A stretch of 62,689 bases of DNA, filler included, from Sphacelaria rigidula (taxonomy: Eukaryota): the NCBI GenBank assembly GCA_964200075.2. It is 5 parts of 5 records of this genome, joined end to end, with 100 filler letters (N's around TTAATTAATTAA, not from the genome) between each part and the next. Parts side by side here need not be neighbours in the genome. Positions count along the whole stretch, not along the records: positions 1 to 12,461 come from CAXNAA020003745.1; 4 more parts are not named here. One strand, given 5' to 3'. The notes under the pieces were generated by a model. That model saw only the letters and a list, made by a program, of their open reading frames with translations, did no database searches and had not been told where the DNA came from. The position numbers and the translations under genes are program-made. This document shows positions 1 to 62,689 of this stretch, piece by piece (position 1 is the first letter of the stretch; each line of letters opens with the position of its first letter).

Positions 1-596
1 TTGGGATACGAGGTCAATGGTCTGATGACTATGGCATGCATGATCATGAGTACACCCCACCCGCCCCCCTCCCCCGCTGCCGTTGCAAATTGTCAAGTGT
101 CTCCGGACTGTGAGCCTATGAAACAGTTCCGAGGCGACGCTCGCCGTCTACGGGTCAACATGTTTTTGCACGATGTGGTCAAAGAACATCCGACGCGGTC
201 GTGGTCGCCGTCCCATCCACAACAGACCAGATGAACCTCGAATCCTTTCATCTCATCAGGAGCATAAACAAATCGCGTCCCTTCTCTTCCGGTCTATGAA
301 GCGGTACAAATAAAACTGTACCCCCTGCGGAGGGCCGTGGTAAACACATAACTATATCGTTTTGTGTAAGACAGACGATCTCGCGCGCGGGATTGCTGCG
401 AAACGCCCTTGCTGCTGCTACGACGAAGATATGGTGTACGTGACAGCTTCGTGAGGAAAACACTCAAGAGTAATGGCGGTCGTGCTTGTTGCGTTGAACT
501 ACTTCCACCACGTAAATTGGTGTAACTAGTTTCACATTGATGTGATACGGGCTGAGTTACTCGCTGTGTACTTGACCAACTGCTGCCATCGTTCTA

Positions 597-821
597 CACC
601 TTCCTTCTGCAGTGCTTGCCGTTACTTTTTATCGCGACAGGGGTTCAGCAGTCCCTTTTCTTCGTCGACCATGAAGTCGCAGGTTGTGTACACACGGCAT
701 AGTCGCCCTCCACTGTTGAGCATTGTGTGAGGAAAAATCCCAAATCGCTCCGAGATTCGAACCCACCACCCAACCGTGCGGAGGTTTCAACGTTACCAAC
801 TGAGCCACCGGGGCGACCGGC
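597..821 (-). mobile_element. tRNA-derived SINE-like repeat
   Basis: Minus-strand head has Pol III box A (TGGCTCAGTTGG) and box B (GGTTCGAATC). A diverged copy lies at 49489-49713. Confidence 0.7.
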
Positions 822-2710
822 TCTGCACAAGATACGGTACGAGTTGAGCACATGAGACGTTGAATTTTTTTTTACTGACGAAAACTAGAACATCTCCTCC
901 TATGGTGAGGGATCGGCGACTGGAAACCGTGGTATGGTGGTCGACCAAGTTGCGTACACCCCTGAGGAGAGTACAGACAATATGATCATGTAATTTGTTC
1001 GACATCATCTCAAAATCGTTTCACGCCTAATAGTGATCTGAGGCCGCTATCAACAGAGTGATCTAAAAACAATGAGGCTGGAGTTTCAAACGTTCTGGGA
1101 CAGTCTCCAGGCAGGGCACTGCCCGACAGCGGTTCCTTGCTCACGTGAATCGGGCCTGTCGTGTTTTCTGGTTGGAATCGGCTTGATATTGTACGTCTGT
1201 GTGCGGAGAGCAAATATAGTACGCGTTGTTTGTGCTGAATGTGGCTCACCTCTCGACATTATGCTGCAAGGAAAAAAACACTAGCCCACACAGCATGCAA
1301 TCACTGATTATAGGGTACCCGCGGCCATTCGGCTACCCCAAACAATTCTCTGTTCCGCTCAACGTTTCGAGCCTCCAGAGGAAATAAACGCCTTCAGAGG
1401 CTTGCTTTGCCTCTGGAGGGCCGTTGCACATTCCTCCGGAGGAATTAGGAGGATGCGTGGCCCTCCAGAGCAACACCTTTTTCTTACCCTCGAGAGATTT
1501 ATACCTCATGAGTCACTGGAGCATCAGATGCCCTCCGGAAGATTCGTTCATGACCGCACCTGGGAATGAAATATCCTCTAGAGGGTAATTTACCCTCGAG
1601 AGGATGACAATCGCGACAGAGGATTTTTGAGGGAAGCCGAATGTCCGCGTGTGGGGACAAAAATCAGCTAAGTTGTTTTTATTGGCACTTGCATAGTCGC
1701 TCAGACTCAACCGCCGAAAACGAAGGGATGCTACCCGACCAATTCCGCCGCACATTGCTGTACGATGAGGACTTGACACACCCGGGGGCACCCCACAACG
1801 CAGCATCAACCAACTAAAAATGCTGACTCCGCTGATTCTCGTACTCGCGGTCTTCCTCTTCCCCACCGTCCATAGATGGGTCTTCTGGAGACACGGGAGA
1901 TGCACTTCCTGGAACTGATGTTGCGCTCTCGGTAGTTTTCCCATCCTGTGTACATGCCACGGAGTGCTTTCGGTGACCGTCAGCGGCATGACTCATGAAA
2001 AAATTGGCGCGGTTTGGTCGAATGTATGCCTCACCCTCGCCTACCGTAACCTTTTTTGTATATACATATTTGACGAGTCTCTCCACGTTGAGAACTAATG
2101 CAAGTTCATGAGGGCGCGGATATGTGATGGAAATTCCGGAGCCCGCGGTCATGAGGCATATTTCGTACATTCTTCGGGAACCTCTATTCACCTACAGCAA
2201 AATGCGTAAATATCGTGTTCACATACCTGAAAGTCATGCTGCGTGAAAACGACGATGACAGGAAACAGGTGCACGTCATTCTTCTCGAATACTTTTCAGG
2301 TGAAGGACATGCGTCTCGCTTTGCGTGAAGTGACAGATGAAGAACCTGTAGCCATGATTCACACCGTACATATGAATGGTGAATAACACTCACCCACGAT
2401 TATCCGTTGGAAATAAACGGTGGGGAATATGCACATTCAATTCATCTCGCACTAATTCCAGGTGGCAAAGATGTGCATGCGAATTACACCGTATGAAATC
2501 ACAGGTGAAGTACATGTGACCAAAAATATTGCTCGCGGTCCCTTGAACAAATGAAAATGTATGAGAGCAGAGGCATTATTTGACGTCCCGTTGATGTCTT
2601 GTGAAAGTGTGTTCCGTCTACGGGTAGGCATCGGATTGGCGGGACATATTTCGTGAAATGGTGGGAAACCTGATATAGTTGAATCTACGGCCGTTTCGAA
2701 CACCATGCAG

Positions 2711-2782
2711 GTGAAATTCCAGAATCGCTTGGTCGGCTGGGCAGGCTGAGACAAATCGCCATCTTTAGCAACCAGCTCAGCG
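2711..2782 (+). CDS. 72-bp LRR exon 1: (G)EIPESLGRLGRLRQIAIFSNQLS(G)
   Basis: atgcag acceptor, gtgagt donor, phase 1-1, 24-aa GxIPxxLGxLxxLxxLxLxxNxL consensus. Confidence 0.9.
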
Positions 2783-5700
2783 GTGAGTCCCTTGAACAAA
2801 TGAAGGTGTATGGGAGCAGGAGCAGTGTTTGAAGTTCGCACAATAGTGTCCCATTGGATTTCGCTGATGCTTCTGGAACTGAGTCCCGTCTACGGCTTGG
2901 CTCTGGGTTGGCGAGACATGTTTCTAAAAGTGGTGGGAAACCTGATGCACTTTCATCCACGGCCGTTTCGACCACAATGCAGGCAGAATCCCCGATTCGT
3001 TTGGTCAGCTGGGCAGCCTAGAAGCTGCTAATCTTGCGGACAATCAGCTAAGCGGTAAGTCCCTTGGACAAATGAAGGTGTATGGGAGCAGGAGCAGTGT
3101 TTGAAGTTCGCACACTGGTGTCCAATTGGATTCCGCTGATGTTTTGTAAAGGGTGTCCCGTCGACGGCTATGCTCCGGGTTAGCGCGAAATATTCCTCGT
3201 GACGGTGGGAAACGTGACGTGCTACAATGCATGCTCGTTTCGAACACCATGCAGGTGAAATTCCGAACTGGATTGGTCGGCTGAGCTGCCTGAAGATGCT
3301 CAACCTCTCTGGCAACCAGCTAAGAGGTAAGTCCCTTGGACAAATGAAGGTGTATGGGAGCAGGAGCAGTGTTTGAAGTTCGCACACTGGTGTCCAATTG
3401 GATTCCGCTGATGTTTTGTAAAGGGTGTCCCGTCGACGGCTATGCTCCGGGTTAGCGCGAAATATTCCTCGTGACGGTGGGAAACGTGACGTGCTACAAT
3501 GCATGCTCGTTTCGAACACCATGCAGGTGAAATTCCGAACTGGATTGGTCGGCTGAGCTGCCTGAAGATACTCCACCTCGCTGGCAACCAGCTAAGAGGT
3601 GAGTCTCTTGAACGAATGAAGGTGACGGGGAGCAGAGGCGGTATTTGAAGTCCACGCGATAGTGTCTGGTTGGGTTCCGTTGATGTCTTGTGGAACGGTG
3701 TCCCGCCAACTGCTAGGCTCCGGGTTGGCAGAACATTCCTAGAAACGGTGGGAAACCCGATGTACTTCGATCCACGCCCGTTGCAAACACCATGCAGGCG
3801 ACATTCCGGACTCGCTTGGTCAGCTGAGCAGCCTAAATATCCTCAGCCTCGATGGCAACGAGCTAAGCGGTGAGTCCCTTGGACAAATGACGGTTTACGG
3901 GAGCAGGGGTGGTATTTGAAGTCCACACCATCATGTATAATTGGGTTCCGTCGATGTTTTGTGGAACTGTGTCCCGCCTACGGCTAGGTTCCGGGTTGGC
4001 GGCACCGATTCCTACGAGGTCTTCACGGACCACGGGTCATATATTATAAGATGAGTTGGCGTGAGCACAACTCTTGTGCCGACGGAGTTGTATTTCGAAA
4101 TTGAGATATTTTGAAGAATCCGGTTGAACAATGGCGATATCACCTCTTGTCGATGCAACAGCCCTATTGTTATCGGGGAAACAACCCAATCGAGGCAAAA
4201 ATTACCTCATCTCGATCGGAATATGTAAATGTCACGATTCCTCTCTTGATGGCACATTAATGTGAAACACTAAGCATCACTACTAATTTTGTGCTCATGC
4301 GAACCCGGGAAAACGAGCTCAAAACTAACAAGAAAAGAGCTTATTGGGTGAACGTCTACTTCACCTAATCCATAATATAGAGAAAAATCTCACATCTTTT
4401 TATGACGAGTCGATGGCATGACCTTCGACTTACATCATGGTCACGTTTATGACGTCACATTACTAATGAAAATTCTAGGCTTCATTACCTAACATCTCCA
4501 CAACAGTTGGCCTGGTAAATGTGGGCAATATGTAGCACTGTACAGCGCTCGGTCGGCCGCGTGCACACGGCCGCTCTGTACTGTGTACACACAACTACAG
4601 CCTCAACACTTTGCTGGATCAAGAAGTCCATTTCTTTCTTGTTTTCGTCGCCTTCTTTCCAGTGTGTCGGGTGTGATTTTTCATGGGTCTCGAGCGAAAC
4701 AAAAGCTCATTCCTCGGTAAGGAGTAGCATGGTCGGTATGGCAGGAGGAATCCACGTGTGCAACCATGGATCCGAGAGAACAGGCTAGTGTGTTTGATGA
4801 CAAAACAAGAACAAATCGCAAGGTAACTCAGCAGCAGAACCGATGACGTGCTCATACTCAATGTCCATACCTTAATGTCCTTCCTCCAGCGTCGACACCT
4901 CCAAATACGGGCCCCTATCTAGCGTTTCTCTGATTGTAGTGGAGCAGCCAATCTGCCCAGTTGCGAATTATCACAACGCTCAAAGTGTGTTGCTCCCCAT
5001 TGGTTCGAACGGACGACCCGCTTGTTCTTCCTCGATTCCGCGGCACTCTGTATCACCCTAGGATGCGCTGGTGGTTTACTTGGTGCAATATTGGTTTATT
5101 GACTCAATTCATGATCCGAATGATACAAGTGATCGCCGTACATCTGCACTAGACCCACTTGGCAACAGTAGTGTGCTTTGTCGAGGACGACCTTCGGTGG
5201 ATTGCAGCTCAACTAAGATGAAGCTAATGTTGCCTGCAGACCATTTGAGGAATGCACACGATTGACGTTCTCCCGCTCAAAGCTAAGTATACTTGTACTC
5301 GGTTTCTGTGAAGGCTTCCCACTTGCATTGTCCGCCGGTCATGCCTCGTGCCCATGCAGGGTTTTGGCAGCCGCTTGGGCAAGTCCAGGCTGGGTCAACG
5401 GCACCCGGGCCAGGTGTGTTGGATGAAGTGCTCGACGATGGCGATTCCTGGCTTGTAAATTCGTTGCATGGGCACTGATGTGAACATTACTTGCTACGCC
5501 GTTCCCCTTCAACGTTTGTTGAGCAGAATAAGAGAAGAGTCGCGAATTCGGAGCTTGGTTGTCAAGATAGACTGTACTCGAAGGTCCCATTGTATGTCCT
5601 CTGCGCGGTTGGAGGAAGTACTGAACTTACCGGGGAATACGTTCGAAGCCCCATCTCATAATATATCTACTGTGCGCTTGAAAAAGGCACTGAGGTCATT

Positions 5701-8700
5701 GGGATATGATTTTGAAACCCCATCTGTTAACGGTCCGTTACGGGATATCGCGCGACTATCTAGCGCGATGTTTTCATTTCGTGCGTGTTTCTCCACGTGG
5801 TTGACGCAATGAAACTCTTCGTATGGACGACATCACCCGGACAATGTTTTCCTGCCTGAAGGAAAAGGGTTTGTGGACTTTCAGTAGATACCAACATTCG
5901 ACCCGAGTTTCCCGTGACACGTTACAGCTCCTCCGCAACTGAAAATCTACAAGTAGACATAGAGGGTAAGCAACCTTGACGATATAAAGGCGCAGGTCGT
6001 GTGGGACGCATCCCATCCTGGCCCTTGACGTGATTTGCCTGTTTCCGCCCAACCGCATGTCCCGCGATTCATTTGCGTGTTTTCCAGATACTCTTCCGGG
6101 GGAATTGGCCTCTCTTCTCGACTGCTTAGCCGGGATTCCTGATTTAATGCTTGGCCAAAACCCGTGGGAGCAACCTCCCGTGGCAATCGTGGCGGATGGT
6201 ATGCCAGCGGTGAGGGGGTACTTCGAAGCCATGTTCAGGAGCGGATTTACCCTTGTGACCCGACCGCTAAAGGTGGTGATAGTTGGGAAGGAGACTGTTG
6301 GCAAGACGAGGTACGACGTTACGGTTTCTTCGCTTCTCCTACTTTTCTCCGAATTAGCGGAATTATCTTCACGCTATTCCCGCACACTACCCGTGACAGG
6401 GGGTTGATATCTCTCATAGAGACGATGCTATACAGACTTTGTTGTACCGTTGTAGAATCGAATCCGTCCCGTGGCAACTTTCACATGTAGGACGTCGTAA
6501 TGCGTGAGAGAACCGCGTGCTTAGAGGGCCGCATCGGCATTTGAACACCCCTATGGTTAGGGTTAGAGTTAGGGTTAGGGTTAGGGTCAGGGGTGTAGTA
6601 CCTGCAGTAACTGACCCGATTGGTTTCGAAAAGCATCGGTCCTGAGGTATTTTGAACTACGGCGCGGTCCTCCGAGCACGCGGTCCTTTTACGCATTACA
6701 ACGTATCAGAGCAATGCTCCCCAAAGAGGCGTCCTCGAATCAAAACATGACCTTTTCCCGCGGAACGACTGGATCGATATTGATCAGTACTTGAAGGAAC
6801 GCGGTTGTAAGTCACCAAAAACGCGAGTGATATCACTTCGGGGGTACATGCATTTAGGATCGGACGCCAAAAAGTTGATGATTAGACAAGTCACTGAGAA
6901 GACTCCACCAGTATTGGCGCATTTCATATATCCTGTGTGCGCTGGCGCAGTTTACGTCACAGCATCGGGACCGGGCAGCCGCGCACGACAAGAGGAGATG
7001 GTCAGGATAGCACGGTCCATGTGGATGTCGACGATCACGTAGTCGATGGTCATCGAACTTGGATGTTTGATTGTGCCGGTCAGGTGAGACATATTTTGTC
7101 ACCTGCATGCATTCACTCTATTGTGCTTAGTCGACCCAGTCGTCACGCTCACGTCATTGGTCGGCGTGTTTTACATTCGCCGGTCTGAGGTATTCACAGC
7201 GGCAGGAGTTCGACATAACTATTTACTGTGGTCATCTTTCTTGCAAATTATCGCATTACGCGTCCGGCCATTGGTTTAAGGCAAAACGTTTTCTGATGAA
7301 AGTTGAGCGGACCCACTCCCACATATGTCAGCTCATATTATCGATGGGTTTGTCTCATCCTCGTCATTGCTAGTCATGAACATGCAACTCGTGGATGATA
7401 TTGTCCGTTCGAATGACGGTAAGGTTCCAAAATCGAGTCACACCATTGGCGACATCGTTGTGACACCGACTGATAGTTCACGGTGGGTATCTCCGTGGCA
7501 AGTAACCCACGTTTATTTCTGACCCCGGCAGCATTTTGACGTCAACGCTTGTCACATGAATTTACACCTTGCAGCTTGATTTACTTCATGCGACACGACG
7601 TTGGCGTTGATTAAAACCGCTTCACGTGTCTCGTGATCGTTCTCTGCGACCGCTCGATAGGTTGTCTACTACGGGCTGCTCCAACTGTTTCTCACCCCTC
7701 GTGCTGTATACCTTTTGGTATGGGATGCGGAGAGAGCCAGCATGATCGACGGGTTGAACCTGGAAGACCTCGGCATCGCTCCCTGGCTCAGGAACTTGAC
7801 TTTCCGTGTACCGGACGCAAATTTGATACTCGTGGGCAACAAGTGGGACCGCGTGGAAAGGGCTGAGGACCGAGTAGCGGGTAAAGTGGAAGATAGAAGT
7901 CGCAAATGGCTGACTAATTGGATAGAGAGTGCGCGCGGACATCAACCTCACAGGCTTTCATTGGAAGACGGCGTCAGTCTTGTGAGTTGTGTGCCACTCG
8001 GCTCCGGAGAAAGGCTCAGTGGGGCGACAGGCTGGCCGTGCGACCGGAGTGAGCCGGGGCTTCTTCATCGCATCACGCACAGCCCAGACGGTCACACGAG
8101 AGCTCTCAAGATGTGTCTCCCGCAAAGCTATGTACTCGCCCTTCAGGTGCTTGAGGAGGTGGCGTCATCCAGCAGGTGAGGTCGTCGATGCCGTGTCTGT
8201 GTCTGAACTAGTGAAGTATGAGATACTCGTTAGATGCAATCAAGGGATATACCAATACACGTATCAATACCTTTAGAATGAACACGTCTGTGGTCTGACT
8301 TCTCACATCTAACGATAGCCTTGCTTTCACCCGCGTATGCATTTGTGGATGGTGCACAGCTGGACTCGACGAGATATTGCGTTTTCTTCCATCCTCTTGA
8401 TGGCACCCGTGTGTTCTCTCAGGGATACTGCTGAACGGAGAGGCATCACAAGAACGAGTATAGAGGAGAAGTGGCAGGCAAAGGTGCATGAGCTGGGCAG
8501 AGCTGCACCGCTGGATGCAGCCTTAGGAGAGGCCATGAATGGCGCGATCCTGATAAGGTGATTTCGACCTCGGCTTCCCTACTTTTGGGTTGGCTTCATC
8601 GGAGGCGAATTAGGTGTAATATTTCCTGACATACTAGTCGTTGAAAAGTGCTTGGATGTATGCAACCCGATTGTCTAGGTGTACTGTTCTGTTTATGTGA

Positions 8701-9540
8701 GTAAAGTTTGCAGCACATGAGTGGGTGCAGTTTTGAAATTTGGTCCTCGTACCATTTCGTTTCGGGCCTGGCTTTTCATCCTACTCACGCGTGGTATACA
8801 GGAAGTGGGAGGGAGGACTGGTGGATTACGGCAGCTACATCTTCCTCGATGTCCAATGGTTTGCGACAGTTTTGGACCCTTTGTTCAGTCACAAGCGAGA
8901 TTCATACGGCAACATTGATTTGGGTGGCATCAGAGTTACGCAAGTTGCGAGCTTGAGGCGACTAGATGAAGAACATGTTTTCGAGCCACAACTCGCTAAG
9001 GATCTTTGGGGCGCAGTGCTTGCATCGCATCTTCTCATGGCTTTGAAAAGTGCGGGGTTAACGTTTCCCTTGCCGAACGACCCCAATGAGGGCTTGGTGA
9101 TCCTTCTCCGTATGGGTACAGAGCCCCCAAGTGACTACGCCACAAAGCTCGAGGAAGCAGACAGAGCTAGAAACCACGACCTCAAGCTCAAGGTGGAGTG
9201 CTTCTTCAGTCTAGGGTTGCCCCCTGGCTTCGTTGAGCGTCTCCTGGCGAGGTGCTGTCACTTGGGCTTCCCGCACCCCTTCTGGCGATACGGGGCTCTT
9301 ATAGTGGGTGAAGGAGAGGAGGAAGGGTTGTTCTCACTGAGTTTGGAATACTCCGAGAGGAACAGAATCCTGACAGTGGAGGTGTACGGAGGATGTCAAA
9401 GGAGCCATGCGTGGGCGGCTTTGTCGAAAGTACTCTCCGTCACGATCAAGATGCTGTCGGAGTTCCCCGGTTTACCCTGCGAGGCAACGTTTTTCTGCCC
9501 GCGTCACGAGACCAAGGGCATGTCCATCAGGACGGCAGAT
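2711..9540 (+). CDS. LRR-ROC-COR (ROCO family LRR-GTPase), spliced; N- and C-terminal exons not resolved
   Basis: Phase-compatible AG/GT exons read by hand: 2711-2782, 2983-3054, 3255-3326, 3527-3598, 3798-3869 (LRRs), 5360-5413, 6088-6310, 6951-7083, 7661-8175, 8423-8557, 8802-9540. Motifs: NPWEQPP LRR cap, P-loop LKVVIVGKETVGKTS, switch II FDCAGQ, YYGLLQLFLTPRAVYLLVWD, G4 LVGNKWD, and COR segments FLDVQWFA and GLPPGFVERLLARC. No internal stops seen. Confidence 0.9.
2983..3054 (+). CDS. 72-bp LRR exon 2: (G)RIPDSFGQLGSLEAANLADNQLS(G)
   Basis: atgcag acceptor, gtaagt donor, phase 1-1, LRR consensus. Confidence 0.9.
3255..3326 (+). CDS. 72-bp LRR exon 3: (G)EIPNWIGRLSCLKMLNLSGNQLR(G)
   Basis: atgcag acceptor, gtaagt donor, phase 1-1, LRR consensus. 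Confidence 0.9.
3527..3598 (+). CDS. 72-bp LRR exon 4: (G)EIPNWIGRLSCLKILHLAGNQLR(G)
   Basis: atgcag acceptor, gtgagt donor, phase 1-1, LRR consensus. Confidence 0.9.
3798..3869 (+). CDS. 72-bp LRR exon 5: (G)DIPDSLGQLSSLNILSLDGNELS(G)
   Basis: atgcag acceptor, gtgagt donor, phase 1-1, LRR consensus. Confidence 0.9.
4059..4300. mobile_element. Putative MITE in ROCO intron
   Basis: Short terminal inverted repeat gcgtgagcacaa ... ttgtgctcatgc around an AT-rich non-coding interior. Confidence 0.4.
6088..6310 (+). CDS. ROCO exon: LRR C-cap and ROC P-loop
   Basis: tttccag acceptor, gtacga donor; DTLPGELASLL...NPWEQPPVAIV...KVVIVGKETVGKT. Confidence 0.88.
6497..6699. mobile_element. MITE-like element with internal TTAGGG repeats, in ROCO intron
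   Basis: 36-bp inverted arms at 6497-6532 and 6664-6699 (30/36 match); six TTAGGG-like units at 6557-6592. Confidence 0.65.
6951..7083 (+). CDS. ROCO exon: ROC switch I/II
   Basis: gcgcag acceptor, gtgaga donor; SLRHSI...DSTVHVDV...WMFDCAGQ. Confidence 0.88.
7661..8175 (+). CDS. ROCO exon: ROC G4/G5 region and start of COR
   Basis: gatag acceptor, gtgagg donor; VVYYGLLQLFLTPRAVYLLVWD...LVGNKWD. Confidence 0.88.
8802..9540 (+). CDS. ROCO exon: COR domain
   Basis: atacag acceptor, gtaagt donor at 9541; KWEGGLVDYGSYIFLDVQWFATVLDPLFSH...LPPGFVERLLARC. Confidence 0.88.
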
Positions 9541-12461
9541 GTAAGTGCCCGATTTCAATGCGCTAATGGCTTTTGGTTTGTTGGATGATCATTCTTCCAG
9601 TGGTAACCAAGTAAGCAGCGTTCGATGTCGATAATCTTGTTGAGCAGGATACACTCAGTAAATGGTCGAGAAGGCACCCTCGGAACCTCAATGTTGAACA
9701 AGGTATGCGATCATTATGCGCGTGATATTTGCCATCAACTTCGAGTTGCACTGCTCGAAACACGCTACAGGACCGAAAAAGCACACGAAGGACAAAAGGT
9801 CGAAGGGAATGCCTTGGGAATCGTTTGTGGGTGACGTTCGTTACCTCAAAGCAGCATGAATAGCGAGCAGAAATACGAGCTGCGCCAGCCTGAAAACGGA
9901 CTTGAGCTCTAAAAGCAGTATGTCATCGACATAGACGAGTTGGGGCGTGATGCGCATCCTATCCTATTTATTATTAGCGTAATGTCACCAGCTCCCACAC
10001 TGCAATGAAGTCGGCCCGTTTCCGGATTTCCCGTACTCTCGAGATGAACATGTGGCTCGCGCGAGCACCGGATGCACGAAACACAGGGCACCCCAACCGT
10101 GGTGGCGTGCGTCACGCTTTTACACTCTGAATCGGAGCCATCACAACCAAGCCACAGTCAAGTGGAGTAGTACAATTGGACGGTAACATGATGTTGCACT
10201 CTCTCTCATCGCGCGACAGAACACTACACACGTATGCTGCATTATACCTCGATACCGCCATGTTCGCCACGTCATCTCTATCGCACTCATTGTGTGTTTG
10301 ACAGAGCATGGATCACGTGTCACCCGCGGGGCGGGTTCTCTGCACACCGTGGACAAAATATTCCTTTGTAAAAAAATGCACTGTGCACAGTGTGGAATTT
10401 GTTTTTCATTGCGTTAGACGCAATAGTCGATACTGTACCCAGTACGCTTTTTGACAATAAATTCTTTTGTCCAGGGTGTGGTTGCCTGTTGTTTTGGCAT
10501 AGTTTTCACTTGAAAAATAAGGAAAGACCCATGTGACACCCTGGCGGTAAAGAGGATACATTTTAGAGCTGGCGGCAGAAAGACGTCAGGCTCTCCGGAT
10601 ATTTCTTGGAATCTGATTCTATAGTGGTACCCATGGACAGAGCGAAGGAACGTAGCGGGCGAAGGGGGAAGAGAAGACACTGCATGCCCTGTATTGTACA
10701 GTTCCGTACTGTCCTGTGTATTTTAGTTGGGATTCGGTCTATCTACATGTCACGTGTGTACCGTCCTGTCTGTACGACATCGCCCATTTTGCTGAACAGA
10801 CGCCACGGCGATCATGGCAATACCTACGGACGCAATACGATTCACTCTTAGACCGTGATGCGGGTAGTCCATTCGCGTCACCGATATTTCAGCAGGTGAC
10901 CTACCCTCGCGGTCAAAGGGTTAACGAAGATGGGAGCATAATACAGTCGCCATGACGTTGCTACTGCGGTACACGTCAGGCTCTGTACCTGGGCTCCCTT
11001 TGCCGCTGGGCACAACAAACAAAGCGCGCGGCAGCTCTTTTTACTTCATAATTCGTCGGCGTGCACTTAGCAGGGGAAGAAGGAAAGGAGTAACTTTGAG
11101 ATTTGAAACAATCAATACAGATCACTTGTTCATTTTCGAGCTGGCGGATGGTAGACACGTGAACGAAAGGAAATCGGCTACGCGACGAGTAGTGACAGAT
11201 CAGGCTCCTTCATCGAAGGGGCCTTCATCGAAGGGGCCCCATAACGACCAGTTCTGAGTCATCATTTTTCAATGAATTATGAATAAGTTTGAGCAGGGTC
11301 ACGCACAACGTGCGCAGGTGATGAGCAGCGACGGCTCAAGCCATGTGTTCTTGGTTTGCGGGGGCACCAAGTTCCGCAGTTTTTAGCTCTGATTGTTTGG
11401 GTTGTGTGGTGTGCGTTTCCATGTGCCCTTGTTAACCGGAAATATATTTATGTTCTCCTTCGAGGTGTCCGGATATCCCTTATTCAAGAGGAGATTTCAG
11501 AAAGTGTTTTTTCACCGCCTGGAATTCCCCCCCAAATAGGGTATTTCTGGGCACATACGTTTGAGGATTTTGTTCGGGAGGGGTAGGGGGGGGGTGGCAT
11601 TGCAGCAACCAATCAGCGATCGTTTTCAAGGAAGATAATTTGAGAAAAAAAAAGAACGAGAAATCCCATTCGATGAAAAGGACCCCGGGAGAGTACGGCA
11701 GCATGTTACTGTACTCCTGTACTACGCGTTGGTTGTCCTGGCTCTACATCGAAAGTGTGATCCAGGTCATCACGGTCGGGGTGGTCATGCGGCATTGACC
11801 AGCCACAAGTGTTTTTGCCATAATCCTAGGTTGCACAGATGTCGATGATGCACCCGGGTGCTCATACAATTTTTCTGCTTCGCGGACGTGAGGGTAGAGT
11901 TCAAGGGCAGGTCGAGAAGAGTATGTACTGTTGAGTATGCTCCTGCTCGACGAACGCATACAGGAGAACAATTGACCCGAACGTCCTCCTTGGAGAAAAG
12001 AAAAACGACCGAACGACTCTTGATATTTTCTTCACACCAACTCCAAGGCCGGAGCGTGTACGCTATTTTTGAGTTGTGTGCTTCGAGCCCGAATGCACCC
12101 ACTGGGTTACAGCCCCTTCCAGGGCATGTCCCGCGCTCAGCAGGAATAATCGGACAATGGCGTAATATTTCTGCAGGTTTTGAGGGTCGGCTTGAAAAGT
12201 ACGTGGAAACAAGGATCAACCCCGGAATGTCTCAGTGGTGCGGAGGCTGAAGCTCACGAACACCACGTTCACGACGTGTTGGTAAAATAATAATAAACAT
12301 GTCTGGGAGCGACCTGTCCAACCAGGGCGAGGCGAAATGTATCGACCACATCAGAACGACCAGTGGGGGGGGGGGGGGGGGGGCTGTTGCCGGGAGTGAT
12401 GTCACTGCAAAGTTGGTGTACCCCGTCCCTGGCCAACAGAAAAGCCTTCGAATCAAAAGGA

Positions 12462-12561
12462 NNNNNNNNNNNNNNNNNNNNNNNNNNNNNNNNNNNNNNN
12501 NNNNNTTAATTAATTAANNNNNNNNNNNNNNNNNNNNNNNNNNNNNNNNNNNNNNNNNNNN
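12462..12561. other. Artificial contig spacer (N44-TTAATTAATTAA-N44)
   Basis: The same 100-bp spacer occurs at 25021-25120, 37578-37677 and 50134-50233. Confidence 0.97.
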
Positions 12562-12813
12562 GGAAGCCTGCAACTCATCAGCTTCAGCCCCAACAAACTC
12601 AGCGGCGAGATCCCATCGTGGCTCCGACAGTTCGGGAACTTCCGAGAGCTTCACCTTGGCGTAAACCAGCTCATCGGCGAGGTCCCATCGCCGCTCCGAC
12701 AGCTTGGCAGTCGGCAAGAGCTGTTCTTCTCCGACAAAGTCAGCGGGGAGAACACATCGTCGCTTGGACAACTGTGGAGTCTGCGAAAGCACAGCGATGC
12801 AGCGCCCCAGTAG
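12562..12813 (+). pseudogene. Degenerate intronless LRR fragment (about 3 repeats), truncated by contig start
   Basis: Translates GSLQLISFSPNKLSGEIPSWLRQFGNFRELHLGVNQLIGEVPSPLRQLGSRQELFFSDKVSGENTSSLGQLWSL; the third repeat has lost the conserved Asn, then a stop follows. Confidence 0.7.
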
Positions 12814-13037
12814 GCTACGTCGTTTGCTGAAGCCATCAATATTTTTGATAATAATCGCTTTGCTCCGCTATCAACCGGTGCACTGCAAGGAAGCGCGCTA
12901 CGGCCACATCAAACACCTCACGTGTGCACAGGTTCGTGAGCCTCGGAGTATGGAGGCAGACTGACGGAAGTTGGCAGTTTGGCCGGGAGCTTGTGGGAGA
13001 AACATGAGACGCATGGAGGCTATCCGTCGCTGGATAC

Positions 13038-23409: not shown

Positions 23410-26400
23410 GTGAGATCAACTCTTTGCAAACGATACTCGAAGAGGGGGAATGGCATGAGAGATTGGTCAGGCGGAAAGTGTGATGAACTCAGGAAAAACT
23501 GAGACGTAGCTTGTGCTGTGCCCTGCGAGTATGATATGTGTGTGGTGATGGATATCGAGAAAAAGTCAGTGGGATACTAAAGCCGATATGTGCTGTTGAA
23601 AGTTCGGTAATATCGATGCGATATCCGATATCCGATGTATCGTATCGCGTGATATCGCATGATATCGTGAACGATAACTGGAGATTTCGCCTTCAACTTT
23701 CCCCGAAACGTGTAGGATCCGGAGACAACCTGCTCTTCACACATGATGCATATATCGCAGTTTTGCTGGACATGTGTTATGTACCCGGCAATATATCCCG
23801 GATATATGGGGATGTATCGGGATATGTGTATATATATCGATATTTGGGATACGATACCCTCTCACTGATTGTCTGTCCAGGTATTCTCCGAGGGTTGTGA
23901 AAATTCCCCCGACGATGCCAATCTTTATGGCGGATCTATATTCGGAAAAGCACAAAGAAACACGGCGTGCTTGTGATATATATCGGCTCGACGAGAAGCA
24001 CAAACAGCTGCCGATCATACACACTTTCCGTCCGCTCTGCGCGCTGTATCCCGTCAGTTGATTCGAAGAGCCTGTCATGTGATCTAGCGTTTCATGATGT
24101 TGAACCGGTTAGGGTGGATTCTGTATGAAGGGTTCCGATGCCGACCCATGTTTTATTTTTTTTTTCCGGGAAGAAGTATCTGGTTTTCGTTGGTGAAAAG
24201 GTGAGGACGTGATGAGTCAAAAATAACTTTCACGGTTGTCGACGCGGTGTGGAAGTAGTGCTGGTCCAATCCGCGATGCCAAAATGCCAGGGAGGTACCG
24301 GGCAAAAAGTAAGTTGGTCTCTTGAGACCACCAAGTCGTCCCGAAGAAGTGGGGGACTTGAGAGCATGATAAACATGCAGTGAGGAACAAAAGCCAGGAT
24401 CCATCACCCCCACCTTGCGGCTGTCAAACCCGCCTCATCACCGATACTGTCACCAGTGGTGAAACGCCGTTGGATTCAACAAGTCGCCCCAAGCTGAGGA
24501 CTTTCGGCTTCTTGCCGGTTCCGCCCTTTCGGGTGCTGGCTTACAGGCGGGTCCGCTACTTCAGTTAGTGTTTGATAGCTCATTGCTCAAGCAAATGGCG
24601 GCCGAAGAACTCTCCTAGAATCACCCCCCCCCGTGTTTTTCTCGTACGAAACGTATCGCATTGCTGTTTAGAGTGTGCTCCGACGATGCAGCGGCGTTCC
24701 ACCCTGTCGCACATGTCATCTTTTGCGGCGAATCCAGCCTTTACCGTTATGGCCGCGAAATGTGTACGTTCGTTTCTATGTATTCCACTGCGCACCTGTC
24801 TACCTTGATGTTGACGTGCAGAGGTGTCCCGGTTAGTAGGGCGGCCCTTGTTCAAACGGTGCCCGATTTCAGGCGGTGAACATCGGTTTGTACCAACACA
24901 TCTCGGGCAAGTACGATCCCAATCCACTCCAACGCTGAGTTCCACTTGAGAGTCGTTCAACGATAGACGGTGGGCGCGTACTTATTTGTTGCCTGCCTTA
25001 GTCGTTTGACCACTGACCATNNNNNNNNNNNNNNNNNNNNNNNNNNNNNNNNNNNNNNNNNNNNTTAATTAATTAANNNNNNNNNNNNNNNNNNNNNNNN
25101 NNNNNNNNNNNNNNNNNNNNCATTTTCGGCAATCGCCTTCACTGTGGAGATGGGCAGCACACAGGTGCACTTCCGGCGTTCCATCGACAACAACTGAAGC
25201 GCTCCAGCTACTACTACACCGTAACCCCACGCAAGCGTGTATAAAAGTTGTCAGCATTTAAGAAACGTCGTTAGAACGTATTGCCGGACCTTCGAAACAA
25301 GCCCTCTTTTCCTAGAGACTGCGACGTATTCGCTTCTCAAAGAAATCGAGATCCAAAACGGTTACCACTTTGTTTCGTGCGTGAGGTGGTATACTGTGTG
25401 GAACACTGTACCGCACGTACCGCAGCCGGCGATATACCTTTTTTCTCTTCCTGGGCAGAAACGCGTCTGCCAAGGGCACCGTCGTCTCCACAACCCCACG
25501 ACAGGATCTTTCCGTCGGCAACAGCGAAAACGCCGAGTCCACCACATGTCACCGACGTAATCTACAACAGACGAGCATCAAGAGTACGATTCAAGAACGG
25601 CGCCCTCATCACGGACGTGAAAACAAAGCATTCGGAAAACCAATGACCAAGTCCGCCATGCGCTCACGTCAAGTACAATATGACAATATCAAAGGACACC
25701 GCTGGTGTTTTCAGTCGTTGTACAGGAGCTGTTCGTTGGCCTGTCTTGCCTCTCCAGCAAGTTGTATCAGATGAACGGTTCGGCAAACGTCCAAGCCTGC
25801 GCAGTTCAAGAGGGTTGGTTTCAGGCTGAGGTGCACACCGTGCAACTCTAAGAGTACAGTGTGGGCACTGGTATCCTGGGCGGAGAAGATATTCCATTCA
25901 CTATTTACGGCAGCAAAAGACTACAGATCAAGGGTGCCTGCTCGTGTCACAGGCTGTGGTGTAATGTATCAAATTTAGCCGCCAATTCGGGCCCAACCTT
26001 ACATGATATCCTGAGTGCAGACACTTGCCCGTGACGCGTACTGCCGCAGAGCTCTACGACGAACACAGAGAGGAGCAAATGATGCCGTGGGAGTCAAGTC
26101 CACAGCGCGACCCGCCGCCCGACTTCATGAGTATTTCAAAACGATCATATCTCCCACTGAATGTGCTGTCAAGATCATTGTCGGGAGATCCAACTGTGAA
26201 GTGAGGTAAGTCAGTCCTGCACCGAAAATAAACAGATGCCAATGATAGGACATCTCGCCTCCTACGTTGTAGATAGAAGCCGCAAATTCGAAGCAGTCAC
26301 ATCTGGCCCTCGTTTGGGACGACAACTCTGCTTGGAATAGTGTCGCAACAATGCCGGCAGTAGGAAGGGACGGTGGATGTTTCTCCCAACTACCGTCTTT

Positions 26401-35790: not shown

Positions 35791-38329
35791 AGATTTTTTT
35801 TTTCGCGGGTTAACGCCATTTTCCTGAAAACTGGATAGCGATCATTGCCGTCAACTCATGGAGAAAAAAAAAAACTTACGCCCTGTTCTTTTATTATTAT
35901 TACTATGTCCTCTTCATTATCCGGACCACATTTGAAAGTCCAACTCTCAAACTTGAGCCTAGATGGGGTCTGCAAACCACATATTCGCGTCTAGGCCGGC
36001 CAAGCTCGTATATCGGTACACCTCTCCTCCTCTCCGGCGGTGAGAACATTCAACTTCGGGCATCCGAAACTTGAAACCATCAAAGTCGCGCAAGTTCGTA
36101 TCTCCGTTGACACATACGCCCCGTGCGTCTCTTTGTGTATTACCGTGCGTCCTTTGCTTCCATTGATCGTAGATGCCCTGCCTGGTGACCGAGTGCATGT
36201 ATATCAAAACACTTGAAATGGACGAGAATATAGATAGGTACCGCAATACGTACAGATATTGCTCAACCTCCCGACTGGTCCATGGCTGTCTGTAAACATA
36301 GGAGTCGGCACTACATGGCACTACATGAAAAACCTCCTTTTATTGGCCTGAATTACATGAAAAGGCCAATACGCACAGTCTCGAATCCTACAGTGCCGTG
36401 GGAGTCCCGGATCAGTGCGGTGGATCGCTAGGCCGCCATTGCCACGCTATGTTGGGACCTCGTGCCATACTGGTTTATTACAGTTACTTGATGTTAATGT
36501 GGAATATCGGATATGTCACAGGTGAATTCAACCATACTGTGGTGGGATACTGTACTCGCAAGGTCGCACTGTGGTGGGAACGCCGCTGAGCCGTGGACGC
36601 CCACGTGCCGCAGGGGCAAAAATCTAGTGCCGGGAGAAGCACGCGATATACCGCGGATATCTCCCTCCCAAACGCCCCCCCCCAAACACCCCGGATTTCA
36701 ACTTTAGGAAAACATGTCTTGGAAGTTGAAATACGGGTACCCCTGTCTGCAAACCGTAGTAGTGCATGAGAACCGACACCAATGACGCGTTCATCACGTA
36801 TACGAAGCAATAACGTGAGTATTGATAGAAACAAAATTCTGCTTGTGACTGGGGGTTCAAACCAGGGAGTGGCCATGCTTCAAGGATGCTGGTTCACTGT
36901 GCCATGCGCCACGACTTGCACATGGAACAAAAAAAAGGGAGATGGGAAAAGGTCACATCGCGATCTCTGCTACTTTTCCTCCGTTGGCCCCCTCCCTTTC
37001 CACTTTCCGGTCCAAATCTCGCCCCGTCATTCCCCACCCGTCGTCCTTTTCAAGATAACACGAGATGGTGTCAGCTACCCAAAAAGATAAGTAAGCAGCC
37101 GAACAGTCCCCGTACCACGAGTTGAGCCCACATCTAAACATTTCCGATTGACTGTCTGCTTCTTGTAAATAACGAAGTCGATTGCGATTCGATTCTTCGC
37201 GTATCCACCCAACAAGCCTCACACCGAAGGGGCAATGGTGGGCAGATTTTCCAGGAGTCACACCCCAGGATCCCCCAGAGAGCAAAAAAAGGGCGAGAGG
37301 GTGGGGGGGGGGTCGATGGGAGTTAACCCCCAGTTATCGCAGACAAGGGGAACAGTGAAAACTGTTCCAATAGAACTTCTGCCCGACTTTCCGGCCATTC
37401 TTCATTCATCGAGAGCCTGGGAGGCGGGGAGGGGGGGAAGGGGGCGTACTCATTTGTTGCTTGCTTTGGTCATTTGACCAATAACCACGCATCCCTTTCG
37501 AGACTATAGCCTCTGCCAGACGATCTGGACAAGAGGGCTATTCAGTGAGGGACTTCTCCAGAATCCACTGGCCTCACNNNNNNNNNNNNNNNNNNNNNNN
37601 NNNNNNNNNNNNNNNNNNNNNTTAATTAATTAANNNNNNNNNNNNNNNNNNNNNNNNNNNNNNNNNNNNNNNNNNNNAGCGCTGCACGAAACTAGAAATA
37701 GCGAAGTGCATGGTTTAAGGTTCCTTCCTGTCCTCTGGGGGCAATAAATAAATAAATAAATCGGAGCCAGCACAACCAACGCAGAATACAGTCAGTAGTA
37801 CAACAGTAACATGATGTCGCACTCTCCCTCTCATCTCTTACTACCTGTCGCGTGGTCGAGTCTACATGACTTCCCACTGCCAGCTCAAACGTAAAAATAT
37901 GCCCTGTGTTGATTATTTCGAAGGTGTCCTACACAAACATGTGATCTTGTTCCGCGTAAAAGTTGAGTTTTGGATCTTCCGTCGGCCGTGTATTCACCAA
38001 CTGTATATGTCACAGGCAGTACACGCTAGCTGCGCCCTGAGGCTACAGTGCTTGTCAGTGCTTTTTCGTGTATGCGAAAGAAAGAATGAAGACAGTACCT
38101 GTGGGTGTGATAGTCGGCCAACAGTATATGTCACGGGCTGGATACTGAAGCGCCAACGTTGTCTCTTGAAATTTTTGTCACTAAAGCTAGCTAGCTATTT
38201 TGAGGATACACCATTATGAATTCATACACACATGAACAAAAGTGAAATCGACTCAGACCTCGTGACACCCCAAGGATTCTCGGAACCTCGCAGCGAACAA
38301 CAGAAGAAAGCGAAGAAATCAGATGACCA

Positions 38330-44294: not shown

Positions 44295-45195
44295 CGACGG
44301 TATACAATGTCCAACACGTCGCCGCCCAGCCCTACGGGTTCGGTTCCCTCTCGCACTATTTCACTCCCAGGCCTTGAAACGCTATGAACTGCAAATATTA
44401 TGTAGCCCTGATCGTCACCTCAGCTGCCTCCCAGATAAGGAACGCGTCGATTGCTTGCCCTTCCATCATGTACACTGCTTGCGAAATCCCTCGCCCGATT
44501 GTGCTGACGCCAGGGTATCTCCATCCCCACCAGGCGTATAGATGGTCAGGCCTGTCGTATCTCGTGCATCCATACGTCACTACTGCGGTCCTTGGGGAGT
44601 TCCGTTTCCACGTATACTAAGCGCTGTGCTTCTCGAGTGCGTCACCTCGAAAATGGACGCGTGGACCACAGCTATCGAAGTCCCTGTAGATGCACAGCGC
44701 CGCACGTTCACTTTCGGTATGACTCGCCGAACATCTATGTCTCGTGTTGTTCAAGAGTTGAACTAATATTGTGGGCAAGGAAATCATACGGAAGACCTCG
44801 GCGGTATTTTATTATCGTAATGTCCAAAATCAACACCCCCACCTCCCTTTGCTCCTTCGTCCCACCGTGCAGCAATGTTAGTATATGTTTTTTACAGAGG
44901 AAACGACAACCCCCTGTAGCCATGCTGCATTACCTATCCCTTTCCTCTGTTGACTCCACGTTGGTCCGTCAGTCCACTCTTTTCCACGTCCCTAAGTGCG
45001 CCCAAACATTCTATAATGGTTCATTTATCCTTCACTTGGGGAGGACCTTCGGTTGCCTTTGCCGTTTGTTTGATGCAGGCTGCTACCGGATTGGTTAGCT
45101 GGTTCCAGGGCACGGGTGAGTGGCGTCGCGGAGTGGAAAAGCGGCAGTCGGACTCCCGCGGCCTCGACTTTTTTTTTACGACAGTCGTGAGGAGT

Positions 45196-62335: not shown

Positions 62336-62689
62336 GTAAACTGCTGGTACATCGAGGGCAGAGTAGTAGTGCGTAGTCTTCTCGTAGTCCGCATCACTTT
62401 TATAGCCCGCATGGTCGAATGTATGTGCCTCTCCTCTTTTTTTTCTGTCGAGGCCAGCGCGCTTTGTCCTTGGTGAGGTGGAAGTAAAGGAGGCACCGAG
62501 CCGTGGAATACCGGGAAAGCAAGGCAATGGATTTGGGCACGGGAGGGAGGCGGGGTGGGGATCAAAGCCACAATTTTCTCGTGTGCGTTTGCGAAGTGAT
62601 GGTGCTGTCGTTTTTCCGGAGAGTGGGGGGGGGGGGGGGGGGGGGTGTTGGCGCTTTTTCAATTGGAAAAGGGGTAATTGGTGTTCTTT

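Follow-up and report, generated by a model that had tools for sequence, protein, structure and literature searches.

The region at positions 2538–4014 (+ strand) of the window, that is, the whole stretch of DNA analysed (62,689 bases), very probably represents the LRR part of an expressed LRR-ROC-COR gene, a part built up by germline tandem duplication of complete exon-plus-intron cassettes with subsequent change at the x positions of the repeats. It lies in piece 1 of the window (positions 1–12461, 12.46 kb; CAXNAA020003745.1, Sphacelaria rigidula), and the gene belongs to the ROCO family of brown algae. In this lineage, which became multicellular independently, genes of the family are the foremost candidates for pathogen receptors; for the present gene, a receptor role is presumed from that published proposal. 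Germline shuffling, splicing, and somatic change are the candidate routes by which the LRR repertoire may be diversified. The layout has already been published for the family, and no new principle emerges from the locus, although its strictly periodic array makes it unusually clean as an example. One duplication was recent enough for 200-bp introns to be identical, yet the exons differ at three published selected sites.

The array consists of 272-bp tandem exon-plus-intron units. Tandem Repeats Finder reported a repeat at 2588–4001 (period 272, 5.2 copies, 81% matches, 1% indels, score 1501), and a repeat search gave a 300-nt unit occurring five times at spacings of 272, 272, 272, and 271, together with a 49-nt intron start occurring six times (2538, 2787, 3059, 3331, 3603, and 3874). 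A profile of the whole cassette had six matches within 1–12461, all inside 2538–4014. The introns I1–I4 (200, 200, 200, and 199 bp) were homologous along their whole length, with pairwise identities of 158/199, 152/198, and 149/198, and I2 and I3 were identical at 200 of 200 positions. The preliminary description had taken the repeat unit to be exon plus intron, with introns of approximately 200 bp mutually homologous end to end, and the repeat search, intron alignment, and cassette profile agreed on both points. It had also described the array itself correctly, but its bounds needed revision, since partial intron copies extend the array at both edges (Table 1). At the 5′ edge, I0 is without the GTGA start and a 24-bp block, is 75–78% identical to I1–I4, and ends in the CAG acceptor of E1. 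At the 3′ edge, a truncated copy from 3870 to approximately 4014 opens a 1490-bp intron (3870–5359), and cassette homology ends there. No further LRR exons or cassette introns were found on either strand of piece 1 using nucleotide, protein, and cassette profiles; the best other matches in 1–12461 had E values of at least 0.72 and at least 4.9, and the cassette profile gave none.

Both strands of the whole window were searched with the exon pattern CAG/G-N70-G/GTRAG. Six matches were obtained, five of which were E1–E5 on the + strand; the sixth (1488–1559, − strand) contained a stop codon. As had been claimed, there are five exact 72-bp exons encoding one 24-residue LRR each, and the five beta-strand strings listed earlier matched the translations exactly. 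All five exons fit the type I motif GxxPxxLxxxxxLxxLxLxxNxLx and its 72-nt length. At every junction, the intron is located after the first base of a Gly codon (G/GT or G/GC), so that E1–E5 and a 54-bp exon downstream carry two codon-completing bases at the start and one base at the end. This uniform, symmetric arrangement is phase 1 on both exon sides by the classical intron definition, in agreement with the earlier assignment; the 'phase 2' given for the same layout in PMC11378527 probably reflects a CDS-offset convention. As all these exons are symmetric, their gain, loss, or skipping preserves the reading frame.

Table 1. Features of the LRR-ROC-COR gene in piece 1 (positions count along the window).
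Feature	Position	Strand	Evidence or remark
Partial cassette intron I0	2538–2710	+	5′ edge of array; profile positions 77–272, E 1.7e-36
LRR exon E1, 72 bp, LRQIAIFSN	2711–2782	+	Pattern; E1-E2 RNA joint in X5 and X6
Cassette intron I1, 200 bp	2783–2982	+	Spliced out in X5 and X6
LRR exon E2, 72 bp, LEAANLADN	2983–3054	+	Pattern; diverged outlier
Cassette intron I2, 200 bp	3055–3254	+	Spliced out in one X6 contig
LRR exon E3, 72 bp, LKMLNLSGN	3255–3326	+	Pattern; variant in other runs
Cassette intron I3, 200 bp	3327–3526	+	Intron comparison and contig joints
LRR exon E4, 72 bp, LKILHLAGN	3527–3598	+	Pattern; young duplicate of E3
Cassette intron I4, 199 bp	3599–3797	+	Spliced out in X5 and X6
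LRR exon E5, 72 bp, LNILSLDGN	3798–3869	+	Pattern; RNA contigs
Truncated cassette intron copy, ~145 bp	3870–4014	+	Profile match 3799 to 4014; joint 3869 to 5360
54-bp linker exon after LRRs	5360–5413	+	RNA joints on both sides, X5 and X6
Exon with last LRR-like turn, NPW..PP linker, and ROC P-loop GKETVGKT(S)	6088–6310	+	Spliced contigs, 0 other letters
ROC exon, DCAGQ (G3)	6951–7083	+	Motif, homologues, RNA contigs
ROC exon, NKWD (G4)	7661–8175	+	Pfam Roc, E 0.002, 18.8 bits
Exon between ROC and COR	8423–8557	+	Homologues, RNA contigs
COR exon, putative stop at 9589–9591	8802–9591	+	Homologues, RNA contigs to 9242; Pfam COR-B, E 9e-4, 19.5 bits

Spliced RNA contigs were available from the public runs X5 and X6, and DNA contigs from X3 and X4. 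The spliced contigs of X5 and X6 join E1-E2-E3-E4-E5, then the 54-bp exon, and then the ROC and COR exons; the LRR exons are linked to ROC and COR by overlapping contigs rather than by one spanning contig. Ten introns were spliced out in X5 and/or X6 (2783–2982, 3055–3254, 3327–3526, 3599–3797, 3870–5359, 5414–6087, 6311–6950, 7084–7660, 8176–8422, and 8558–8801), all with GT..AG ends, and none of these skips was seen in the X3 or X4 contigs. The shorter side of the E1-E2 joint covers all 72 letters of E1. Over the COR exon, exact RNA contigs extend to 9242.

The spliced frame stays open over 734 codons. Across 724 residues, it has 65.7% identity to the Ectocarpus LRR-Roc protein P0006 (residues 152–875 of the 1064 of P0006), in which Roc scores 50.1 bits against a 27-bit cut-off and LRR families are also matched. 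The 54-bp exon, which has the same symmetric phase as the LRR exons, is conserved in homologues and falls within this colinear match. The G1, G3, and G4 motifs of a Ras-like GTPase are readable in exons 6088–6310, 6951–7083, and 7661–8175, respectively, and Pfam Roc on the single exon 7661–8175 reached 18.8 bits, below the 27-bit cut-off. COR-B on the COR exon likewise remained below the 27-bit cut-off (19.2–19.5 bits, E ~1e-3), and the COR region is 75–78% identical to Ectocarpus spp. proteins; the homologue P0025, named ROCO by its source, also scored below the cut-off (COR-B, 24.4 bits). According to the available text of PMC11378527, brown-algal COR was missed by InterProScan and is hard to detect with standard tools. 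Among 3074 candidates, 31 homologues were retrieved at E ≤ 0.001, the best being 75–78% identical and from Ectocarpus spp., and one was labelled by its source as an 'LRR-GTPase of the ROCO family'. The number of type-I-like LRRs across these 31 ranged from 0 to 13, with at least one in 16. The LRR exons spliced onto ROC and COR exons, the open frame, and the homologues thus bear out the earlier identification of a ROCO gene. The N-terminal cap and the C-terminal tail of approximately 190 residues that are conserved in the homologues were not found in piece 1; the gene may be a truncated copy, or it may continue beyond the end of the piece.

The symmetric phase shared by the five LRR exons and the 54-bp exon permits in-frame skipping, and diversity might arise mainly through alternative splicing into isoforms that differ in their LRRs. 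PMC11378527 favours this view and, in its available text, describes as many as nine splice variants for ROCO genes of Ectocarpus; for the present locus, we consider it possible but rather doubtful. One X5 contig was aligned as E2 to E4, but the shorter side of this joint spans no more than 21 letters and, since the first 42 bases of E3 and E4 are the same, an E2-E3 joint fits equally well. All the unambiguous joints run from neighbour to neighbour, in De Bruijn contigs that show minor isoforms poorly. The proposal of exon skipping therefore holds for the permissive phase but not for an observed event, the sole E2-to-E4 joint being ambiguous.

Growth of the array is seen in a young duplicate. 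The segments 3054–3328 and 3326–3600 differ at three of 275 positions (3298, 3302, and 3308), and E4 differs from E3 at 3 of 72 bases, giving M14I, N16H, and S18A. A third, E3-like exon variant was present in runs X5, X6, and X3 (3293 A>G, 3295 G>C, and 3312 G>A), giving K13D and G19D. The LRR domain is coded by type I exons of 72 nt each, carried in head-to-tail 272-bp cassettes, and the array very probably expanded as complete cassettes were duplicated in tandem in the germ line, with unequal crossing-over or replication slippage between the ~200-bp introns as likely routes. An older burst, from which the introns are now 21–25% apart, was very probably followed by one or more very recent events (275 bp with 3 differences). 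With both cassette boundaries lying one base into a Gly codon, each gain or loss corresponds to one LRR solenoid turn in frame. The introns had been suggested to act as homology arms; the near-perfect 275-bp duplicate shows recent addition of whole cassettes, but no swapping of cassettes was seen in the DNA contigs of X3 and X4. Sites 14, 16, 18, and 19 of the LRR are positively selected in brown-algal ROCO according to the available text of PMC11378527. The young pair differs at 14, 16, and 18 of these, and the variant differs at 13 and 19.

A residue-by-residue comparison of the exons confirmed that the scaffold is conserved while the x positions of the beta-strand vary. In nine non-duplicate pairs, the non-synonymous difference (pN) was 0.33–0.89 at the x positions vs. 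0.19–0.27 in the scaffold, and intron divergence in the same comparison was 0.21–0.33. The sample is small, and each exon offers just 23 codons, which makes every rate figure noisy. The homologue P0013 contains 12 near-identical LRRs that vary at the same x positions. Post-duplication change is concentrated on the x of LxxLxLxxN, the concave and presumed ligand-binding face, probably under diversifying selection, while the scaffold and introns would drift at an approximately neutral rate.

E2 departs from this pattern. Its exon is 39–42% different from E1, E3, and E4, whereas its flanking introns are 21–23% different (p 0.0005 and 0.005); between E1 and E2, for example, differences amount to 30/72 in the exon and 79/371 in the introns (p 0.0005). 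The synonymous difference of E2 is 0.53–0.66, and its LRR profile score is the weakest (8.4 bits). E2 is poorly explained by simple descent of whole cassettes: either its exon was replaced or its introns were homogenised.

The divergence of E2 from its own introns, also at synonymous sites, would fit introns that are kept alike, either by gene conversion combined with selection on the beta-strand codons or by functional intron elements such as splicing signals or structured RNA. The confinement of the differences in the young pair to an 11-nt island points the same way, as does the lower number of variable columns in the 5′ half of the introns (4–6 per 20 vs. 7–11 in the 3′ half). We regard this explanation as unlikely. 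For E1, E3, E4, and E5, the synonymous difference (0.06–0.22) does not exceed the intron divergence (0.21–0.33), and the two agree as under plain common descent. Intron divergence is even along the length, its heterogeneity not being significant (permutation p 0.51). The consensus fold of the four introns was weak (−22.3 kcal/mol over 200 nt) and without covariation support (covariation term +0.94), and no Rfam match was obtained at E ≤ 1 in positions 1–13000.

The three changes of the young pair all alter a residue (positions 14, 16, and 18) and all fall within 11 nt, with none in the other 264 positions; the chance of such clustering is 0.0034, and ordinary selection on independent mutations is a poor explanation. 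E3, E4, and the variant have identical flanks and two clusters of change (three within 11 nt and three within 20 nt), and all six changes alter a residue (positions 13, 14, 16, 18, and 19). A mutational process aimed at ligand-face codons, rather than selection on random point mutations, may have diversified the young cassettes, which we judge improbable; such a process would be consistent with short templated micro-conversion in which LRR exons at other genomic sites act as donors. The young pair is explained equally well by a single short conversion event or by flanks that were homogenised. The pattern would also be compatible with haplotypes or individuals that differ in cassette copy number, the 200-bp introns serving for pairing.

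The identity of I2 and I3 over 200 bp and the shared first 42 bases of E3 and E4 cause short-read graphs to branch here, and the periodic array, or its copy number, could in principle result from repeat mis-assembly. The X3 DNA contigs stop at 2825 and resume at 3743, and the E3-like variant could be a copy absent from the assembly. However, RNA contigs of a different study (P2) independently gave the E1-E2, E2-E3, E3-E4, and E4-E5 joints, and four of the five cassettes are 21–25% apart and hence not collapsed copies of one another. An artefact is very improbable.

Variable lymphocyte receptors (VLRs) arise by somatic assembly, in which donor cassettes on the flanks complete an unfinished germline gene. 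An analogous assembly had been proposed for this locus, with cassettes added, lost, or swapped via the introns as homology arms; in its somatic form, a programmed swap, gain, or loss within an individual would generate clonal receptor diversity. The cassettes are indeed modular and in phase with homologous 200-bp introns on both flanks, the E3-like variant in X5, X6, and X3 is a third form, and the somatic hypothesis is already in print (PMC3341825). Nevertheless, we consider it extremely unlikely. Unlike the germline gene of VLRs, this array already forms a complete, in-frame unit that is spliced and expressed in its present form; it is not an incomplete gene awaiting assembly. The silent donor cassettes that had been envisaged were absent from both strands of the 12.46-kb piece, as were extra LRR exons. 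The proposed DNA rearrangement likewise left no joint within 2538–4014 in the X3 and X4 contigs, which is weak evidence, as contigs drop rare forms. Transitions and transversions both occur among the six changes that separate E3, E4, and the variant, which does not suggest a deaminase signature. According to the available text of PMC11378527, neither somatically recombined ROCO loci nor a recombinase nor clonal immune cells have been reported. The locus is convenient for long-read amplicon or Iso-Seq tests of the 2012 adaptive-immunity hypothesis.

One-LRR 72-nt exons, exon shuffling, alternative splicing, and the lamprey VLR analogy are all in print (PMC3341825 and PMC11378527), and exon shuffling in brown-algal ROCO genes had been cited earlier as a published proposal; the idea as a whole, with the VLR analogy, is the hypothesis of PMC3341825. 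The present gene resembles the Ectocarpus ROCO type I genes of Zambounis et al. 2012 (PMC3341825) in its 72-nt one-LRR exons with GxxPxxLxxxxxLxxLxLxxNxLx, LRR-ROC-COR order, variable LRR number, and hypervariable concave-face residues. It differs from the loci in the available text of that study in its strict 272-bp period and whole-intron homology, and neither the N-terminal cap nor the C-terminal tail was found in piece 1. That study lists 19 ROCO loci with LRR exons in introns or on the opposite strand, and piece 1 has none; inactivated or opposite-strand LRR exons in LRR introns are frequent in the family but not obligatory. Teng et al. 2024 (PMC11378527) covered ROCO genes of four brown algae (Ectocarpus, Saccharina japonica, C. 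okamuranus, and N. decipiens), which share with this gene the 72-bp exons, one uniform phase, and change at selected LRR sites. Alternative splicing is stressed there, whereas only neighbour joints are unambiguous here.

As in lamprey and hagfish VLRs, LRR modules are the units of diversity and the concave face varies (PMC3341825). As in arthropod Dscam clusters (cited in PMC11378527), tandem duplicated exons provide receptor variety; Dscam uses mutually exclusive splicing, whereas successive cassettes are all included here. A Dscam-type choice of one exon per transcript was rejected, because neighbours are joined in series and the four-intron consensus fold showed no conserved intron pairing. 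The ciliate arrays of PMC6564038 (2019) differ in their 90-bp length, phase 2, association with a LINE-like element, and occurrence as thousands of arrays outside ROCO genes. They share with this locus the exact-length one-unit exons, uniform intron phase, and repetition of exon plus intron, and unequal crossing-over is the engine proposed in the available text of that study and one of the likely routes here.

Tandem Repeats Finder detected a single array (score 1501) that spans 2588-4001 with a period of 272, 5.2 copies, and 81% matches, and a repeat search recovered a 300-nt unit in five copies spaced by 272, 272, 272, and 271, together with a 49-nt intron start in six copies. The exon pattern CAG/G-N70-G/GTRAG, searched on both strands of the entire window, had six matches, five of which were the LRR exons of the array (E1 to E5). 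Translations of these five matches end exactly in the beta-strand strings listed in the preliminary description, and the five 72-bp one-LRR exons were confirmed. Their junction codons all encode Gly (split as G/GT or G/GC), so that each exon is bounded by introns of classical phase 1. The sixth match (1488-1559, minus strand) has a stop codon inside it.

The four cassette introns (I1 to I4; 200, 200, 200, and 199 bp) were alignable end to end, with identities of 158/199, 152/198, and 149/198, and I2 was identical to I3 at 200/200; the homology of the introns along their whole length, as previously described, therefore stands. A whole-cassette profile searched over 1-12461 gave six matches, every one within 2538-4014. 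Five cassettes of the array are intact; an incomplete intron copy borders them on the 5' side (2538-2710), and on the 3' side a truncated copy extends from 3870 to about 4014. The window consists of five pieces, each about 12.46 kb long, with four N44-TTAATTAATTAA-N44 linkers between them (12462-12561, 25021-25120, 37578-37677, and 50134-50233); thus, linkage of features across pieces is not implied, and contiguity with the array applies to 1-12461 only. On the plus strand upstream of the array, 2300-2378 and 2505-2537 (33 bp) were read by eye, with a GTGAAG start after a CAG/TAG-type acceptor; the former contains an in-frame ATG, and its end is in phase with the LRR exons. As judged from sequence, these stretches may be exons 5' of E1 or remnants of decayed cassettes; no profile supports them, and the whole-cassette profile stops at 2538.

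LRR exons of the array and intervals skipped in contigs of the sequencing runs X5 and X6
Feature	Position	Strand	Basis
LRR exon E1	2711-2782	+	pattern match
LRR exon E2	2983-3054	+	pattern match
LRR exon E3	3255-3326	+	pattern match
LRR exon E4	3527-3598	+	pattern match
LRR exon E5	3798-3869	+	pattern match
Skipped interval	2783-2982		X5 and/or X6 contigs
Skipped interval	3055-3254		X5 and/or X6 contigs
Skipped interval	3327-3526		X5 and/or X6 contigs
Skipped interval	3599-3797		X5 and/or X6 contigs
Skipped interval	3870-5359		X5 and/or X6 contigs
Skipped interval	5414-6087		X5 and/or X6 contigs
Skipped interval	6311-6950		X5 and/or X6 contigs
Skipped interval	7084-7660		X5 and/or X6 contigs
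Skipped interval	8176-8422		X5 and/or X6 contigs
Skipped interval	8558-8801		X5 and/or X6 contigs

The stretch was found in eight public sequencing runs, and the contigs of X3 and X4 (one study) and X5 and X6 (another) were compared over 2000-10400. X5 and X6 were taken to be RNA, and their contigs over this range are spliced. Ten intervals were skipped in X5 and/or X6 contigs, all with GT..AG ends, and none of these skips occurred in X3 or X4 contigs; the exon borders of the array were confirmed by these skips. The contig joints further revealed an exon of 54 bp at 5360-5413 whose phase is that of the LRR exons, and over 6084-9242 the contigs had no other letters than the window. Within 2000-10400, X5/X6 contig cover was absent from 2000-2561, most of 3967-5090, and 9587-9867, gaps that may hide the exon or exons 5' of E1 and the actual 3' terminus of the gene. 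The single E2-to-E4 joint and a joint going back 72 were supported by 21-31 letters; both were uninformative because the first 42 bases of E3 and E4 are identical and the supporting letters are common to both. The proposed in-frame exon skipping was not borne out, as its sole E2-to-E4 joint is ambiguous between E3 and E4. X5, X6, and the DNA-like X3 also share a joint at 7730-8053 that skips 322 bases; its AG..GA ends are not intron-like, its shorter side has only 24 letters, and a paralogue or a shared word is its probable source.

ORF fragments 3' of the array carry GKETVGKT, DCAGQ, and NKWD. For the downstream ORF of 283 residues, 31 homologues were retrieved at E <= 0.001, the best being 75-78% identical and from Ectocarpus species; Pfam domains of the LRR and Roc types are present in many of the 31, one of which its source calls 'LRR-GTPase of the ROCO family'. 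The organisms of these homologues are consistent with a brown alga, and so is the EsV-1-7 repeat protein encoded in another piece of the window. Single exons scored 18.8 bits for Roc and 19.2-19.5 bits for COR-B, both under the 27-bit Pfam cut-offs, and the full-length homologue P0006 scored 50.1 bits for Roc. Using P0006 and two further homologues (P0004 and P0015), tblastn gave a colinear exon set at 6054-9546. Joining eleven exon ranges produced an open frame of 734 codons with a stop at 9589-9591, which was 65.7% identical to P0006 over 724 residues (residues 152-875 of 1064). The splicing of LRR exons onto ROC and COR exons supports the earlier claim of a ROCO gene. A relaxed tblastn of piece 1 with four of the 31 homologues (P0006, P0004, P0007, and P0015) retrieved nothing convincing for the N-terminal cap and the C-terminal tail of about 190 residues (best non-LRR E at least 0.38); the gene copy may be truncated or run off piece 1. 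A telomere-like GGTTAG repeat (6.3 copies) lies at 6555-6592, within the ROC intron 6311-6950, and many contigs of X3 to X6 end or branch there. Just 3' of the ROCO stop codon, at 9868-10400, the summed depth of the contigs was very high in all four runs and variant letters were numerous, as a dispersed repeat would show; beyond this repeat-like stretch, the C-terminal tail of the homologues was not found by tblastn in piece 1.

The youngest pair in the array is a tandem duplicate of 275 bp, in which 3054-3328 matched 3326-3600 at 272 of 275 positions; it points to recent gain of whole cassettes. The three mismatches (3298, 3302, and 3308) fall within 11 nt and result in M14I, N16H, and S18A, and the chance that three random differences would cluster so closely was 0.0034. 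LRR sites 14, 16, 18, and 19 (23-residue numbering) are given as positively selected in PMC11378527. A third form of E3 carries 3293 A>G, 3295 G>C, and 3312 G>A, which yield K13D and G19D, and was present in X5, X6, and X3; its flanks are those of E3, and in X3 the identity extends to the intron start. This variant may be an allele or a cassette absent from the assembly, as contig depth does not give copy number. At 3104 and 3133, within the I2/I3 sequence, X4 contigs departed slightly from the window.

For the nine pairs of non-duplicate cassettes, 42-57 of 72 exon positions were identical (58-79%). Non-synonymous difference reached 0.33-0.89 at the x positions of LxxLxLxxN on the concave face (LRR positions 13, 14, 16, 18, and 19), with 0.19-0.27 in the scaffold and an intron divergence of 0.21-0.33. 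Synonymous difference among E1, E3, E4, and E5 was 0.06-0.22, not above the intron divergence, and variable intron columns were evenly spread (permutation p 0.51), as predicted by common descent of whole cassettes. The E2 exon differed from E1, E3, and E4 by 39-42%, its introns by 21-23% (p 0.0005 and 0.005), and its synonymous difference was 0.53-0.66; these values point to a history of E2 (2983-3054) that differs from that of its flanks, with either the exon replaced or the introns homogenised.

Germline tandem duplication of in-phase exon and intron cassettes, with change focused on concave-face residues, is very probably the process behind the array: cassettes would duplicate in tandem in the germ line, and change would then be focused on concave-face residues. 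Directed micro-conversion of beta-strand codons, with or without polymorphism in cassette number, appears improbable. A search for a donor of the E4 beta-strand segment found no second copy of its 15-mer (3568-3582) in the window at up to two mismatches. Donor or silent cassettes were absent elsewhere in piece 1 on both strands (nucleotide profile, protein profile from 88 homologue LRRs, and cassette profile), and X3 and X4 contigs had no joints inside the array, which is weak evidence regarding DNA rearrangement. The interpretation put forward in the preliminary description holds in part: a ROCO gene, cassettes as its repeated unit, and their recent gain are supported, and somatic VLR-like assembly and exon skipping are not. 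Functional intron RNA had no support: Rfam had no matches at E <= 1 in 1-13000, and the consensus fold of the four introns had a positive covariation term and no covariation support. Long ORFs that cross the array on the minus strand (145-187 aa) matched no Pfam family (best E 0.033, taken as chance), and LRR-like scraps at 1430-1790 were not significant (protein profile E 4.9; tblastn E 0.041 and 1.2).

According to PMC3341825, 72-nt one-LRR type I exons occur in all Ectocarpus ROCO genes but one, the LRR domain has recombination hot spots, and the VLR/adaptive-immunity hypothesis is put explicitly; PMC11378527 widens the same picture to four brown algae, adds splice variants, and states that a somatic recombinant locus has not been reported. 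Next to these brown-algal ROCO genes, the present locus is one more example of a kind already described, and its orthologues may be in the supplementary tables of both papers. Tetrahymena LRR genes with exon/intron repeat units of uniform phase are described in PMC6564038, with unequal crossing-over proposed as the engine. Whole-intron homology as a recombination substrate in brown-algal ROCO arrays was not found in the literature text consulted; 'unequal' and 'gene conversion' appear 0 times and 'intron' 15 times in the text of PMC3341825, and 'unequal' 0 times and 'intron' six times in that of PMC11378527. The strict 272-bp periodicity, the whole-intron homology, and a duplicate differing only at selected sites were not found in the text consulted of these three papers.

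Piece 2 starts mid-ORF with three consecutive LRRs without intron (12562-12813, plus strand; Pfam LRR_1, E 1.2e-4), cut by the piece border, and this may represent a processed copy or a locus of LRRs alone with a different exon type. Two plus-strand ORFs lie in other pieces, so that no linkage to the array is implied: one of 858 residues with 14 EsV-1-7 cysteine-rich motifs (44920-47496, E 6.8e-190) and one with MutS domain I (61118-62476, E 1.8e-8).
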